From Bispira polyomma (Eukaryota): a stretch of 64,000 nt of DNA. Made by a program: the position numbers and the translations under genes. Shown piece by piece: positions 695-46,887 of the stretch. The stretch's first letter is position 1, and every line of letters starts with the position of its first letter. Location of the stretch: NCBI GenBank assembly GCA_965649765.1, contig OZ287754.1, forward strand, positions 52,824,001 to 52,888,000, read 5' to 3'. The notes beneath the pieces are model-generated. The model did no database searches, was not told the origin of the DNA, and saw nothing but the letters and a program-made list of their open reading frames with translations.

Positions 695-961
695 TTTTTT
701 TTTTTGTTTTTTTTTAATTTGGATACTTAAAGTCCACTCTAGTACCTGTTTTAGGTTATATTGAGACGGGTAGTTGGAAACGCTGGAGGAAACACTGCAT
801 ACAGTTGATCAAGGTTCTGCAGAAAAACCAGCGGCCCACAGTAAGGAACTACCACCTTTCCCACATAGGCATCGACGGGATTCGAACTCACGCTGCCCAG
901 AGGTGAGAGACCAGTGATTGTGAAGCGCAATGCTTGCCAACCACTAGGCCACCGCGGCCCC
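695..961 (-). mobile_element. tRNA-derived SINE (Meta/MESC-like), family A copy 1, full length
   Basis: Minus strand has A box TGGCCTAGTGG, B box GAGTTCGAATCC and an A-rich tail. 15-bp TSD ACCACACTTGGAGGT at 680-694 and 962-976. Near-identical copies at 2197-2462 and 5433-5654. Confidence 0.92.
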
Positions 962-5432: not shown

Positions 5433-5654
5433 ATTTGAATTTGAATATTTAACGTCCACTCTAGTACCTGTTTAGGTTATATTGGGACAGGTAGTTGGAA
5501 ACGCTGGAGGAAACACTGCATACAGTTGATGAAGGTTCTGCACTGAAACCAGCGGCCCACAGTAAGGAACTACCACCTTTCCCACATAGGCATCGACCGG
5601 ATTCGAACTCACGCCGCCAAAAGGTGAGAGACCAGTGATTGTGAAGCGCAATGC
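5433..5654 (-). mobile_element. tRNA-derived SINE family A copy 3, 5'-truncated (A box lost)
   Basis: Same body as copy 1. Perfect 15-bp TSD ATTAACCCATGATGG at 5418-5432 and 5655-5669. (TTCAAA)-type tail. Confidence 0.9.
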
Positions 5655-38750: not shown

Positions 38751-40139
38751 ATTAGTAAGCCCATTATTTTAGATGTTTCTCTTTGTCATAGTTTTAAAGC
38801 CACAGGTCACCACACCTTTAGGATAACAGCATGAAAAAATGAATGATAACATAATAAAGCTCAATAAACTGACAATAAAATAAAAAAAAAAAAAGATAAG
38901 AGAAAAAAAAAAAACAACTAATAGAATATCTGTATAGGTATATACAAAGATAGATTGTTAATATTCAAGGAACAGAAAAGTTTGGGGTTACAAATTAATC
39001 AACTCTCACAGAATTGTTGTGGAACTAACACATTTTGATATAGCCAAAAACATGAAAGCCTTACTATTTGTGTTTATACAAGAAAATGGGGTTCCAATGA
39101 AGAATTTATCAGGACAGTATATTACTGGTAAACAGTCAAGTGCAAATATGGCATTCAGTACACATTATATACCAAATACAGAATCATCTGTGGAGTGCTA
39201 TTTAAAGAAACAAAAGATATTCTATAACTTTCCTAGAAGTTTCCCTCATTAAGTATATATTTATGACTTTACACAGGCAAAAGATTCTCCATAAAATTGT
39301 AGAAATTTACATCATTAAGTAAATATTTATAGTCCTATTTTTAAGTACATCGTTTAACAGAACAGTCACTGATACGTATATGTACCTATTTTGACATACT
39401 TGAGTTTTTAATAATTTACAATAAATTTAGTGTTACATACTATATAGCAGCTGGCAGTGTCATTTAACATATATTGAATACACAATAAAATATTAGCATA
39501 TGGTGTTGATTACAACTGGTCTTTCAAAACTTTATAGATGCTGTCTTTATACACATATATATGAATATTTTATCCAATGCACATATGATGATTGAAAACT
39601 ATTTTTTATTTTAAAAATGCACTTTAACGGCTAGAAGTGATAGATAACTATGTTGTTGATTGAAAATTGTAGCAATCAGTTAGTTTGTCAAAACAGTAAT
39701 TAAACTGAACTTCACACTTCTTCTAAAAGTTTACCTAAAGTGTTTTTTCCAGTCCAATTCTTTTCATCCCAAATTTTGCTGTCATGGATGGTCAGACCAA
39801 CTCCCCTGTACTTGCATGAATTTCTTTTGCTAATTTGCACACGAATGGTTGAGAGAGACTCACTGATTTTTTCAGTCCACTAAAGTTTTCCAGTAAAAAT
39901 GATGTCAACTTGACATATGATTTGGATGAATATTTCGGCTGTATGTGTATCTTAATCATCCAGATCAGTTTTACAAAATAATGTATATCCATAAAACTAG
40001 TGGTTGAATTTATCCCAGAAATGAGGGAGTATAGAAATATGTTGTTGAACAACAACAATTAAAATATAGGTATTAAGTTTATGTGTATTTGTGTAACTGC
40101 CACCTTAACTTGATTAGTAGTGACAAATAAGATCATTAG

Positions 40140-43100
40140 TATGTGGTGAACGAGGCTATGTTGCTCCGAGTGCCCTTACGTGTTGGTATTTGCGTAAACG
40201 TGTTATGAATGACTTGTTGTTGTCAAACCTTGGTTACTGAGCATAAATGATTCCCTGACCAATGAAATTTGAAAGATTTATGGTCAAACAAATGTTACCT
40301 TGACAGGTAATTGTGTCATAATCAAATTACATCACCTGGTTTGGGTGATGATGTCATAATAGAACCACCTGTCTAGTCTGTGATGTCACAAAAAAAGACA
40401 ATTTCCTGGTGTGGAATAGGATTGTGAGGTGGGCACGGCTTCGCCGGAGAGGCCCATCAGACGCATTTTAGATCTATTTAAAAAGTACTAGTGGGTACTG
40501 CAAACGGAAAATATTCTGGATAGAATATAGTGTTCTTGATTGGGTTATCAAACAAACTGTAGGAACTAATTGATTCCTAGTCCACTTATGACTGGTGTGG
40601 TCAACCTCATAAAGTCCATGGATAGTTTATGTGGTTTGTAAAGTTGGGCAAATAATAAGCTGGTACTAAGTGTACCTTCCTAAATGGTTGCATATGTCAG
40701 TAAGCAAGTAGGGCCACTACTGGATTGAATAGTGGGATGACAGGTTGTGTGCACAGTCTAAAATAATATTTTTTTGGAACGTGGCAATAGACTGTGCACA
40801 ACAACTAGGAATCACTCCTGTATATTGAGGCCCTGAGGTGCATTTGTGCGTAGGCGGTGTTACCATTTCCTCTATACTGTCCTCCTGACCTCTGAGGATC
40901 GGGTGGACTCTGGGTGTGCATGAATGAAATCTACTATGTGTATTTTCATGTCGGAAAGGCCATGATGACCGGGTGAGTTGAAGTGGTGGCCTATGGTATC
41001 CTTGGGATTTTTGGATGTGATATTATAGAAATGACTTTGAAATCTGTCCATTAGGCGTCTCTTGGTTTGGCCTACATACTGCATGTTGCAAGATTTACAC
41101 GTCATGCAGTAGATGAGGTTGCTGCTTTTGCAGTCAACTCTGATTTTGGATGAATATGACCGATGAGTTTGTGAACTAATGATACGACCAGTGGTGTCGA
41201 TGCACGGGCAGTATCTACATTTGCCAAATGTGCATGGTTTGCTGTGTACAACCGGTCCTACGTTAGTAGGTTTAGGTTTAGGGGGATATTGCACTTTGGC
41301 TCTTATCAATAGATCTTTGAGGTTTTTGTTACGCCTGTGGCCAAAAATGAGGTTTTGGTCTAGGAGTGTTTTTGTGTCATTGGACCTGGTTAGAAAATTC
41401 CAGTTTTTGTTGATGACATCTTTGAGACCAGAGAAGTGTGGTTGGAAAGTGTTGATGATGAATAAGTTGGTGGTGTCAAATCCCTTTGATGGTTTACTGG
41501 TAATGGCTAGTAGCTCATCTCTGTTTTGGAGTCTAGCTCGAATAATGGCCTGGTCAATGAGTTCCAGAGGATAGCCTCTTCGTTGGAAATGAAGAGCTAA
41601 TTTGCTGGCATGAGTGTCAAAGTAATCCAGCGAGGTGCAGATACGTCTAACCCTAAGAAATTGGCTGTAGGGTAGACTGGATTTACAGTGATGAGGATGT
41701 GCAGAGGAGTACATGAGGTAGTTGTGGGTCTGTTGGTTTACAATATAGGGTTGTGGATACATAGCCCTCAGAATCTAGAAGGACTGTGGTGTCTAGAAAA
41801 TTGACCTCTGTAGTTGAGATGGAGTCGGTGAACTTTATGTTGGGGTGACATGAGTTCAAATGAGAGAGGAACTGGTCCAGTTCCTCTCTAGATGCTGTCC
41901 AGATCATAAAAATGTAATCTATGAACCTTAACCAAATGTGTGGTTGTATAGGGTAGGTATATACGTGAGTATATTCAAAGTCTCCCATGTAGTTGTTGGC
42001 ATGGGAAGGGGTAACTCTGGTACCCATTGCTGTACCTGAGGTTTGTAGAAAATGTTCACCATTGAATTCAAAATTGTTTTTGGTGAGTATGAGTTTGAGT
42101 AGTTGGATTAGAGATTGGTTAGTAGGGTGATTTGCCCCTGGTCTGAATTTCGCTAGAGTTTTGGCTGCTGCTCTTAGACCATCCTTGTTTGGGATATTGG
42201 TGTAGAGTGATGTTACATCCAAAGTTACTAGATAACTGTTGGGTGGTAATTTGGGTAGATCGTGGAGGATTTGTAGAAAATGAGTGGTGTCCTTAATGTA
42301 GGAGGGTAGGTGTTTGACCGTCGGATTCAGGAAAAAATCAACAAAGGAGGAGATTTTTTCAGTGGGGCTATTATTGGCTGAAATTATAGGTCTACCTGGT
42401 GGGGGTAGTTTGCCTTTGTGAATTTTGGGAAGCATATAGAACCTTGGGGTTCTTGGTTCAGTGTTGATAAGGAACGAATGGACGGAGGGGTCTATTTCGT
42501 CCCGAGTCAACATTTCATCAAGGACCTTGATGACCTCTTGATTATGTGTATGGGTCGGGTCCTCGGTGAGCTTTTGGTAAAAGAGGGGGTCATTGAGTTG
42601 TCTGAAACCCTCTTTAAGGTAGTCAGTGGTGTTGAGTATCACTAATGAGGAGCCCTTGTCAGTTGGTTTAATTGTTATGTGTTTATTGTCCTGGAGTTGC
42701 TGGATAGCTTTCCTTTCTGATCGAGTGATGTTATTAGTCGGTGGACTATGGGTTTTAAGGTTTGAAACTTCTGATTCATTGATAATGATCATGCCCTCTA
42801 AGGTGGGGGGACCTAGAGGTTGCCATTTCGATTTGTGTTTGAATTTATAATGCTCGAATGCTTCATTTGAGTTGTATGAAGGTGGAGGTCTTAGAGCGGG
42901 ACCTTGAGCGGGGTCTCTCAGGGCGCCTGGTTTGGTTTGGGTGTTGATTGTTGGTTGTTGGTGTAGGAAACCATTTGGCGGAGATTGCCTGGTTGAGGTC
43001 AGGGATTTCATTAATCTCTTTGAGCTTTCGTGTCAAGAACTGGTTCATGGCCTCACGATCTTTGCTGATGAGAGTAGCCAGAAAGGTGAGTGCTTGGTTA

Positions 43101-43274
43101 GCACCTTCCTTGTCATCACCATACACATGTTCCACTGATCTGATCAGTGCATTTCCTTTGGCTGTATCCTTGAGATACTTGCATTGGAGTTCATCAGAGA
43201 CACTGAGAACGAGGTTTCTGCCTGAATCCTTTATTTTTTTCTACCATGGAATTGAAAAAAAAAAAAAAAAAAAA
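40140..43274 (-). mobile_element. Penelope-like element (Neptune-type), 5'-truncated, bounded by a 15-bp TSD
   Basis: RT and GIY-YIG ORFs with a Cys-rich linker. TSD AAATAAGATCATTAG at 40125-40139 and 43275-43289. Poly(A) on the + strand at ~43255-43277. Confidence 0.9.
40812..43254 (-). pseudogene. PLE RT-GIY-YIG polyprotein, disrupted
   Basis: KPTDKG, PKIHK..PGRPIIS, LDVTSLYTNIP, GTAMG, RFIDY (catalytic D->Y), PCTFGKCRYC, NLIYCMTC..C..QYVGQT and PQGLN. Frameshift at ~41735 and stops at 40872 and ~40860. Confidence 0.9.
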
Positions 43275-46200
43275 AAATAAGATCATTAGGGCTGGGTGTT
43301 GATCTTATATTTACTGTGTTAGTTTTGTAATTTACATGTGTACTGTGTCACTTTAATAAATACATGAAAATGTATAGCAAGTTTAAAAATTTGGTTTTGT
43401 GTATATTGCTGAATTCTTTGATAAATCTGTATTTAGTACAGTGTGAACTAGCCATTAGTGTGGAAATGCATGTTGATTTTGTTGAAGTGTGGTCCTGGTT
43501 ATACAACCCCTGTAAACCACAAGCCCTACTGGATGCTCCCAAGAATGATTTGTGGTTATCTTACATCTGCCCCATCATCCCCCATGACAGATTGACTACA
43601 TTTTGGGGAGGGGGAGGAAAATCTGGCCCAACTCAGAGCTTTTCTCACAGGTAAAATGTAGCACAGCACACAGTAAATTGATCCAGGACAAACCTCTAGA
43701 GAAATGGACAGTTGTGTTTATGTTATATACAGCACAACTACACTGTGTGTATACAGCACATTTATGAAGGTTTAGTTCAGAGTGCATAAATGAAATGTTC
43801 ATGGTACATGTACAACTTTGTGGAAATATATTCACCACATTTATTTAGGTTTAATCTAGTGCATCATACATACATATATTTAAATCCAAAATTATTTATA
43901 CCTTTTCTATTTCATAGAATTTTATTATAATTTAATTGGTGACTTAGTTTCCTAAAAATAATTTTCTTAGTTCATTACACATATACATGTTTATGTAAGA
44001 TTCTTAAAAATCATTATATTAGCCGGGTTGAGTAAAACCCAGGTTTTATAAGTATTGCCCAGCAGGAAAACCCACCATACACATGTTCCACTGATCTGAT
44101 CAGTGCATTTCCTTTGGCTGTATCCTTGAGATACTTGCATTGGAGTTCATCAGAGACACTGAGAACGAGGTTTCTGCCTGAATCCTTTATTTTTTTCTAC
44201 CATGGAATTGAAAAAAAAAAAAAAAAAAAAAAATAAGATCATTAGGGCTGGGTGTTGATCTTATATTTACTGTGTTAGTTTTGTAATTTACATGTGTACT
44301 GTGTCACTTTAATAAATACATGAAAATGTATAGCAAGTTTAAAAATTTGGTTTTGTGTATATTGCTGAATTCTTTGATAAATCTGTATTTAGTACAGTGT
44401 GAACTAGCCATTAGTGTGGAAATGCATGTTGATTTTGTTGAAGTGTGGTCCTGGTTATACAACCCCTGTAAACCACAAGCCCTACTGGATGCTCCCAAGA
44501 ATGATTTGTGGTTATCTTACATCTGCCCCATCATCCCCCATGACAGATTGACTACATTTTGGGGAGGGGGAGGAAAATCTGGCCCAACTCAGAGCTTTTC
44601 TCACAGGTAAAATGTAGCACAGCACACAGTAAATTGATCCAGGACAAACCTCTAGAGAAATGGACAGTTGTGTTTATGTTATATACAGCACAACTACACT
44701 GTGTGTATACAGCACATTTATGAAGGTTTAGTTCAGAGTGCATAAATGAAATGTTCATGGTACATGTACAACTTTGTGGAAATATATTCACCACATTTAT
44801 TTAGGTTTAATCTAGTGCATCATACATACATATATTTAAATCCAAAATTATTTATACCTTTTCTATTTCATAGAATTTTATTATAATTTAATTGGTGACT
44901 TAGTTTCCTAAAAATAATTTTCTTAGTTCATTACACATATACATGTTTATGTAAGATTCTTAAAAATCATTATATTAGCCGGGTTGAGTAAAACCCAGGT
45001 TTTATAAGTATTGCCCAGCAGGAAAACCCACCATACACATGTTCCACTGATCTGATCAGTGCATTTCCTTTGGCTGTATCCTTGAGATACTTGCATTGGA
45101 GTTCATCAGAGACACTGAGAACGAGGTTTCTGCCTGAATCCTTTATTTTTTTCTACCATGGAATTGAAAAAAAAAAAAAAAAAAAAAAATAAGATCATTA
45201 GGGCTGGGTGTTGATCTTATATTTACTGTGTTAGTTTTGTAATTTACATGTGTACTGTGTCACTTTAATAAATACATGAAAATGTATAGCAAGTTTAAAA
45301 ATTTGGTTTTGTGTATATTGCTGAATTCTTTGATAAATCTGTATTTAGTACAGTGTGAACTAGCCATTAGTGTGGAAATGCATGTTGATTTTGTTGAAGT
45401 GTGGTCCTGGTTATACAACCCCTGTAAACCACAAGCCCTACTGGATGCTCCCAAGAATGATTTGTGGTTATCTTACATCTGCCCCATCATCCCCCATGAC
45501 AGATTGACTACATTTTGGGGAGGGGGAGGAAAATCTGGCCCAACTCAGAGCTTTTCTCACAGGTAAAATGTAGCACAGCACACAGTAAATTGATCCAGGA
45601 CAAACCTCTAGAGAAATGGACAGTTGTGTTTATGTTATATACAGCACAACTACACTGTGTGTATACAGCACATTTATGAAGGTTTAGTTCAGAGTGCATA
45701 AATGAAATGTTCATGGTACATGTACAACTTTGTGGAAATATATTCACCACATTTATTTAGGTTTAATCTAGTGCATCATACATACATATATTTAAATCCA
45801 AAATTATTTATACCTTTTCTATTTCATAGAATTTTATTATAATTTAATTGGTGACTTAGTTTCCTAAAAATAATTTTCTTAGTTCATTACACATATACAT
45901 GTTTATGTAAGATTCTTAAAAATCATTATATTAGCCGGGTTGAGTAAAACCCAGGTTTTATAAGTATTGCCCAGCAGGAAAACCCACCATACACATGTTC
46001 CACTGATCTGATCAGTGCATTTCCTTTGGCTGTATCCTTGAGATACTTGCATTGGAGTTCATCAGAGACACTGAGAACGAGGTTTCTGCCTGAATCCTTT
46101 ATTTTTTTCTACCATGGAATTGAAAAAAAAAAAAAAAAAAAAAAAATAAGATCATTAGGGCTGGGTGTTGATCTTATATTTACTGTGTTAGTTTTGTAAT

Positions 46201-46887
46201 TTACATGTGTACTGTGTCACTTTAATAAATACATGAAAATGTATAGCAAGTTTAAAAATTTGGTTTTGTGTATATTGCTGAATTCTTTGATAAATCTGTA
46301 TTTAGTACAGTGTGAACTAGCCATTAGTGTGGAAATGCATGTTGATTTTGTTGAAGTGTGGTCCTGGTTATACAACCCCTGTAAACCACAAGCCCCCATG
46401 ACAGATTGACTACATTTTGGGGAGGGGGAGGAAAATCTGGCCCAACTCAGAGCTTTTCTCACAGGTAAAATGTAGCACAGCACACAGTAAATTGATCCAG
46501 GACAAACCTCTAGAGAAATGGACAGTTGTGTTTATGTTATATACAGCACAACTACACTGTGTGTATACAGCACATTTATGAAGGTTTAGTTCAGAGTGCA
46601 TAAATGAAATGTTCATGGTACATGTACAACTTTGTGGAAATATATTCACCACATTTATTTAGGTTTAATCTAGTGCATCATACATACATATATTTAAATC
46701 CAAAATTATTTATACCTTTTCTATTTCATAGAATTTTATTATAATTTAATTGGTGACTTAGTTTCCTAAAAATAATTTTCTTAGTTCATTACACATATAC
46801 ATGTTTATGTAAGATTCTTAAAAATCATTATATTAGCCGGGTTGAGTAAAACCCAGGTTTTATAAGTATTGCCCAGCAGGAAAACCC
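43117..46887. repeat. Tandem array of 4 x ~956 bp (4th copy has a 55-bp deletion)
   Basis: Units start at 43117, 44073, 45029 and 45985. Identical spurious ORFs recur at 956-bp offsets. Confidence 0.95.

Follow-up and report, generated by a model that had tools for sequence, protein, structure and literature searches.

Penelope-like elements of Bispira polyomma carry a lineage-dependent A-run at their variable 5' breaks

How does a retrotransposon come to bear a run of adenines at the very end where its coding sequence is cut short? The question is raised by a Penelope-like element (PLE) of Bispira polyomma, located in a 64,000-nucleotide stretch of contig OZ287754.1 (assembly GCA_965649765.1, positions 52,824,001 to 52,888,000 of the forward strand; hereafter the window, whose numbering we use). 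The element's frames lie on the minus strand and are cut mid-coding at the 5' break, as the initial annotation of the window had proposed and as alignment to the upstream frame of a sister family bears out. The break is joined to a plus-strand A-run, and the insertion is flanked by AAATAAGATCATTAG at 40125-40139 and again at 43275-43289, a coincidence for which chance predicts a mean of 0.01 matches (100 shuffles). We found that the A-run is a real family trait, present in about half of the copies, and that its frequency depends on the element lineage.

A-runs across families and lineages

Copies were gathered by DNA and pattern searches and all were scored by one rule; the family labels A to F were coined in this analysis. 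The census comprises 103 loci: 49 belong to family A, the window's own (~95% identical), and 54 to sister family B, whose copies are ~98% identical among themselves and ~65% identical to the window copy. It leaves out the segmental duplicate of the window locus, one locus nested in another, five 79-84% diverged loci and seven without a match, and it is incomplete, 40 of 644 candidates having been scored in the DNA search. The fixed end at the pseudo-long terminal repeat (pLTR) was found, within 12 nt, in 98 of the 103 copies, and a run of at least eight A's within 40 nt beyond the 5' break in 54 (25/49 in A and 29/54 in B). No copy had an A-run at the fixed end (0/103, over the 40 nt before that end), and four had at least eight T's beyond the 5' break. 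Target-site duplications (TSDs) of at least 10 bp flanked 76 copies, 48 of them at 15-17 bp with a mode of 16, and inverted arms were present in five. The 54 A-runs begin at 53 different 5' break points; a T-run at this position is not part of the family consensus. Among copies found independently of their end pattern, the fixed end was kept in 38/41 (A) and 26/28 (B).

Full-length copies, ~5.3 kb long, consist of a pLTR, the open reading frames (ORFs) and another pLTR, the two pLTRs being direct in the full-length sister copies; L095 and L113 bear the A-run and TSD as well. Because full-length copies are arranged in this way, window positions 40140-40775 represent a pLTR, and the premise of the initial annotation that pLTR ends were missing does not hold. 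Its suggestion of an unusual integration route for a PLE is supported. Copies of this kind resemble plus-strand retrocopies with a tail and a TSD, and are prone to mis-annotation.

The frequency of A-runs differs among lineages: A 25/49, B 29/54, B' 7/9, C 8/23, E 1/3, D/D' 0/22 and F 0/1. The 22 D/D' copies come from two collections (7 + 16, one common to both), loci whose break fell outside the retrieved stretch being left unscored; D copies are mostly 93-99% alike and contain short A-rich inserts of 1-3 nt. Since A+B (54/103) and D/D' (0/22) differ so strongly (Fisher p 1e-6, the copies being incompletely independent), the A-run follows the element lineage. In a tree of this genome's families, D, D' and F group together as a single clade with full support (100/100), and both contrasted lineages have long open frames encoding reverse transcriptase (RT) and endonuclease (EN). 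Copies of a young L1-like long interspersed nuclear element (LINE) of this genome end in normal 3' tails, and 1 of 20 has a 5' T-run, a rate tenfold below that of the PLE A-run (p 5e-5).

Two further observations concern single loci. The LINE copy in question (L252:3044-3080) has a 36-nt 5' T-run and a 3' poly(A) inside its TSD, like the primate L1 cases. Copies L135 and L137 have a common flank and possibly descend from one event; they have the same left flank and break point and different linkers (C22 and a 16-nt re-copy, respectively), a difference that may reflect later change or base-calling error.

The window copy and its target site

The insertion and its surroundings consist of the following parts:

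39900..40124, no strand: dispersed host repeat that received the insertion and resumes at 43290; its joined form is seen at empty paralogues
40125..40139, plus strand: left TSD copy, 15 bp, present once at empty paralogous sites
40140..40775, minus strand: 3' pLTR; 40140 is the fixed family end and putative start of reverse transcription, from the census, solo units and sister copies
40149..40156, plus strand: site-1 motif AACGWGGC, ~10 nt inside the fixed end, found there in every lineage examined
40439..40460, minus strand: hammerhead-like core, CTGATGA-stem II-GAAAC in most siblings, with two core bases altered here
40749..40801, minus strand: predicted RNA hairpin around the pLTR boundary, holding a T7 run (40769-40775) and the site-2 motif
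40778..40785, plus strand: site-2 motif AACGTGGC; solo pLTRs stop just before it and second arms begin nearby
40812..42894, minus strand: coding region for RT, thumb, CX4CxxC linker and GIY-YIG, with a frameshift and stops
42894..42898, no strand: internal deletion of ~910 bp, from the overlap of siblings L043 and L046
42899..43254, minus strand: remnant of the upstream frame, cut mid-coding at the 5' break
43255..43274, plus strand: inserted 20-nt A-run on the strand of the complementary DNA (cDNA), a 5' poly(T) in element sense
43275..43289, plus strand: right TSD copy
43117..46887, plus strand: tandem formed after the insertion, its 956-bp unit holding a 138-nt PLE stub, the A-run, the TSD and flank

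The A-run as it stands spans 43255-43277 (23 nt). A search for the host repeat, in which 40 matches were listed of 113 candidates and the outer limits of the repeat were left unmapped, yielded 25 loci: two filled (the window and its duplicate), 16 unfilled and seven outside the search pattern. At eight of the 16 unfilled sites, which are paralogues of the host repeat rather than the orthologous allele, the exact 15-mer occurs once and is followed by the right flank with no A-run. Because empty sites have this form, the TSD is 15 bp long, 20 A's were inserted and the final three belong to the target. This agrees with the earlier description of an A-run of ~20 nt between perfect duplications, and no pre-existing poly(A) was found at the unfilled paralogous sites. 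The copy had been called inserted 'backwards'; its body in fact has the usual orientation of a PLE copy made by target priming, one TSD bordering the fixed pLTR end and the other the variable 5' break. The pLTR, the tandem, the ~910-bp deletion and the segmental duplicate had all passed unremarked.

The 15-mer and A-run recur at 44231, 45187 and 46144 because a later tandem duplication copied the 956-bp unit that begins at 43117. The window has three extra units, of which the last has lost 52 bp by deletion, and the tandem junction shows 1-nt microhomology. A segmental duplicate 234.6 kb away (L041/L042; ~99.9% identity, 99.5-99.99% across the ~42 kb compared) has one extra unit against three in the window; it may have arisen by duplication very recently, or may represent a haplotype left uncollapsed. 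Contigs of three sequencing runs of unrecorded type (two samples, one study) resolve neither the tandem nor the tail; they contain joints across the insertion, possibly from paralogues.

Its features identify the element as an EN+ PLE, with an RT domain followed by a GIY-YIG endonuclease at the C terminus, a pLTR, 5' truncation and a variable TSD. In the window both Pfam matches fall below the cut-off (RVT_1, E 3.4e-4; GIY-YIG, E 4.8e-4), and a sister copy gives 29.9 bits for RVT_1 (cut-off 29.6) and E 6.8e-4 for GIY-YIG; the region 40812..42894 is 65% identical to the open frame of family B. A CCHH zinc-finger motif, the endonuclease feature defined in PMC8557442 (for this and all papers cited below, we refer to the portions accessible to us), was recognized by eye in the family alignment: two Cys residues lie between the equivalents of GIY and YIG, and two His residues follow downstream. 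Every aligned family row has a CX4CxxC linker before the endonuclease, which fits the Neptune pattern CX2-5CxxC. By its linker the element is tentatively classified as a Neptune-like Penelope; the tree covers only this genome's families, and Nematis is also possible.

Full-length B, B', E, D and D' copies (L116:1481-6750, L113, L231, L237, L242, L227 and L232) contain an upstream frame (432 aa in B), a conserved stop and then the RT-EN frame, and the two frames are separated by an AT-rich spacer of 120-200 nt and a conserved TGATC(G/A)AT. Canonical EN+ PLEs are described as single-ORF. The upstream frame has an Arg/Gly-rich end; the 432-aa frame of family B had no Pfam match, and no GT splice donor was found at the stop of the upstream frame. 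In the window, 42935-43240 aligns to residues 249-352 of the family-B upstream frame with 48.6% identity. No family-A copy covers 43201-43254, which leaves the last ~14 nt before the A-run with no direct comparator.

Eleven family-A copies are solo units with ends at 40760-40775, and the segment 40735-40815, which holds the hairpin, is predicted to fold far more stably than shuffled sequence (z = -5.67; 0/200 shuffles as stable). The hammerhead core motif is conserved across siblings and sister families. Rfam returned no hammerhead match in three loci, and the window core, with its two mutated bases, folds no better than shuffles. Both core changes are A-to-G on the sense strand, a bias absent from the overall substitution spectrum of the window copy (48 differences over 2456 sites). 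The window copy is 5'-truncated, dead and otherwise an ordinary member of its family. A SINE-like repeat of ~260 nt occurs elsewhere in the window (695-961, 2197-2462 and 5434-5654) and at L062, L124 and L286; PLE copies too have received it, and in L062 the insertion shows a 14-bp duplication.

Template strand and origin of the A-run

Copies with two arms reveal the template. In each of them (L007, L015, L017, L026, L081, L097, L080 and L112), both arms read antisense inward from their target ends, which requires a sense RNA template with priming at both ends; for an antisense template the opposite arm polarity would be expected. The A-run thus lies at the 3' terminus of the first cDNA or, put the other way round, is a T-run extended from the second target end. 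Every lineage has the 8-nt motif AACGWGGC ~10 nt inside the fixed end, and a second copy of it lies ~630-670 nt upstream. Solo pLTRs terminate just before the second motif, and second arms begin at it (L097, L080 and L112) or 10-55 nt beyond (family A). AACGWGGC marks both pLTR ends and is a candidate initiation signal. In L082 the cDNA continues, after 1767 nt, with 34 nt of the element's upstream start site, and T4 and the TSD come next; this looks like a return to the starting point by a template jump.

On balance, we favor an origin of the A-run in the element's own RT, which would stall, slip and add deoxyadenosines (dA), with the second target end pairing to the tail. The GIY-YIG nuclease would cut both strands ~16 nt apart, and one 3'-OH would prime inside the RNA, ~10 nt from the AACGWGGC motif. 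RT would then halt at random points or, in many cases, at the second motif ~630 nt on, and slip or add untemplated bases, predominantly dA, to give a run of 10-30 nt. The other target end would prime the second strand after pairing over 0-3 nt with the end of the cDNA. In tail-less copies the same join would be made flush through 1-5 nt of microhomology, and in a rarer variant the second end would prime its own cDNA at or near motif 2, which would produce an inverted arm. These steps are inferred; what can be read in the sequences is a fixed start at the pLTR end, variable breaks, a ~16-bp TSD, a sense template and, on the cDNA strand of about half of the copies, an A-run that one related lineage lacks. 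The stronger proposal, that this is a dedicated integration step new for retrotransposons, in which a telomerase-related and element-encoded RT caps a stalled cDNA with 10-30 nt of poly(dA) as a landing pad, an ability lost in D/D', is one to which we give slightly less than even weight.

Several junctions suggest that RT can extend the end of its cDNA. The natural T7 run measures 7-8 nt in 17 read-through copies, whereas in the three copies whose cDNA stops there it reaches 25, 19 and 11 nt; its growth is confined to copies ending there and makes extension of the cDNA end by slippage visible. A G26 run stands at the cDNA end in L125, and the last 6-12 nt were re-copied in L058, L065, L099, L101 and L137, directly before the A-run in L058 and L137. 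A/B linkers to the A-run are at most 10 nt long, except in L135 (C22) and L137 (the 16-nt re-copy). A PLE protein has been reported to cut and extend both strands in vitro and to initiate internally (PMC11167929). Two other leads were dropped: the long stretches after the break in L025 (209 nt) and L044 (330 nt), considered as RNA 3' ends that had been captured, consist of internal sequence of the element itself that is deleted in the window copy, and an extra T between the run and the TSD is probably a flank mutation, as L135 and L137 suggest.

Other observations weigh against tailing by RT. Insert lengths are bimodal (15 at 0 nt or below, 11 at 1-9 nt and 41 at 10 nt or above; n=67), unlike simple untemplated addition, and 27 of 52 testable A-run copies start at a templated A (homopolymers collapsed), near the 40% baseline. 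Non-templated addition was dismissed as too short for the 5' poly(T) of L1 in PMC2837659. The B' copy L240 has 20 nt of unplaced origin before its A-run that could be a captured RNA end, and some junction homopolymers may be sequencing errors or later changes, given L135 and L137. The U-run beside the start site does not track the A-run trait; as a template for the A-run it was rejected, there being no correlation across lineages (D has A4 and E has A3).

The most serious competitor, which we consider a real though lesser possibility, is two-ended priming, in which one target end primes at the pLTR end and the other on a poly(A), of the same RNA or of any mRNA, copying 10-30 T's that are joined by T:A microhomology. 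Its geometry matches the observed copies, it was the mechanism proposed for the 5' poly(T) of L1 (PMC2837659), and the double-armed copies show that the second end can prime on RNA. It also accounts for the length peak at 15-29 nt and for the unexplained 20-nt linker of L240. At direct joins between body and A-run, 22 of 28 share at least one A with the template (40% expected, p 5e-5), an excess that T:A microhomology predicts and that fits tailing equally. In keeping with this route, 28 of 40 TSDs have A as their first base (54% expected, p 0.056); in the other 12 the terminal base cannot pair with poly(A), whereas 11 of the 12 called TSDs of the poly(A)-primed LINE do begin with A, and microhomology between target and poly(A) on the T side never exceeds three leading A's. 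Priming on poly(A) should also at times read through the tail, as second-primed arms are processive and run, unlike the A-runs, for hundreds to thousands of nucleotides; however, sense-oriented RNA 3' sequence precedes the A-run in 0 of the 54 A-run copies of families A and B. Observed second-end priming moreover clusters near motif 2, and poly(A) priming does not account for extension by T's, by G's and by re-copying at that position and offers no evident reason for 0/22 in family D. The initial annotation had suggested poly(A) priming of one target end by a LINE-type mechanism, with trans-mobilization of the PLE RNA as one reading; the priming survives as a possible routine route of the element itself, and the LINE-type mechanism and trans-mobilization do not.

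The remaining explanations place the A-run outside the element's own machinery. Tailing or filling of the junction by a host repair polymerase, after reverse transcription has halted, could explain the 36-nt T-run of the LINE copy, linkers that copy nearby flank (L237 and L092) and the 1-3-nt A-rich inserts of family D, but equally young PLE lineages of one genome would not then differ as sharply as 54/103 and 0/22, nor would the LINE rate be tenfold lower (p 5e-5); we regard it as improbable. Still less probable is the retroposition by a LINE of polyadenylated antisense PLE transcripts, the other model of the initial annotation. Taken alone, the window copy does resemble TSD, sequence, poly(A) and TSD on the plus strand, the genome has an active LINE that is poly(A)-tailed and flanked by TSDs of 13-18 bp, and antisense templates were once considered for PLEs (PMC3846280). 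This model founders on the family: there are 53 distinct tail sites in 54 copies, AATAAA or ATTAAA lies upstream in 1 of 54 (background 0-3.7%), and the polarity of double-armed copies demands a sense template. What would be the 5' end of such an RNA is fixed: among A-run copies found independently of end pattern, 30 of 33 keep it with no LINE-type 5' truncation, and tail-less copies have the same fixed end and TSD length. An assembly artefact or a pre-existing A-run is the least credible account. Homopolymer lengths are error-prone and the locus sits within a tandem and within an almost identical segmental duplicate; nevertheless, empty sites have no A-run, 54 loci on many contigs, almost all independent, bear one, and the run is strand- and end-specific (0/103 at the fixed end).

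Comparison with known systems

The ~100 young copies described here record the second-strand and 5'-joining step of PLE integration and thereby make it testable; this step was left unvalidated in the in vitro study of PAc (Anolis Poseidon; PMC11167929). Families A+B and D/D' (54/103 vs 0/22) allow a direct comparison of two enzymes in one genome, and would form a natural on/off pair if the RT adds the tail. Like PAc, the elements appear to initiate internally near the pLTR/ORF boundary at an AC-rich site, and they share AT-rich targets with both strands cut and extended; homopolymer addition, in contrast, is not reported in the accessible text on PAc. If RT tails its own cDNA, this would amount to a reiterative, telomerase-like activity in vivo in the sister group of telomerase. 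Poly-dA synthesis by a reverse transcriptase on an RNA template has a parallel in DRT9 (PMC12483538), which, as a bacterial system with a protein-primed defence product, serves as an analogy only.

The elements agree with Neptune-type EN+ PLEs (PMC8557442; PMC3846280) in their RT and C-terminal GIY-YIG, CX2-5CxxC and CCHH motifs, the pLTR with a hammerhead-like core motif, 5' truncation, variable TSD and occasional inverted 5' arm. The usual 5' structure there is an inverted pLTR with a 30-40-nt 'tail', whereas here the A-run is commonest and inverted arms occur in 5/103 copies. Second starts ~630-700 nt from the first, and two long frames instead of one, further set these elements apart from canonical EN+ PLEs. 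Our literature search, outside which Repbase, subscription papers and supplements lay, returned no report of 5' poly(T) in PLEs, and none is described in the accessible parts of PMC8557442, PMC3846280, PMC11167929, PMC2837659, PMC8969392, PMC12910113, PMC12483538 and bioRxiv 10.64898/2026.07.22.740005.

The nearest known parallel is a 5' poly(T) that is seen rarely in L1 (PMC2837659), with the same order of TSD (7-20 bp in L1), T-run of ~20 nt and 5'-truncated sense element; the present copies match it in having a T-run between the TSD and the truncated 5' end. That study accounted for it by twin or dual priming in which the non-inverted part is very short. The L1 cases number 39 loci in five primate genomes, in contrast to about half of the copies here. 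They have an L1 endonuclease motif at the T side and no microhomology at the inner junction, whereas the PLE copies have a weak A-bias at the T side and direct inner joins enriched in A, and their element ends at a fixed pLTR position and lacks a 3' poly(A). What distinguishes the present case is thus an A-run that is family-wide and lineage-dependent, and if it arises by priming on poly(A), a rare accident of L1 would be the main route here.

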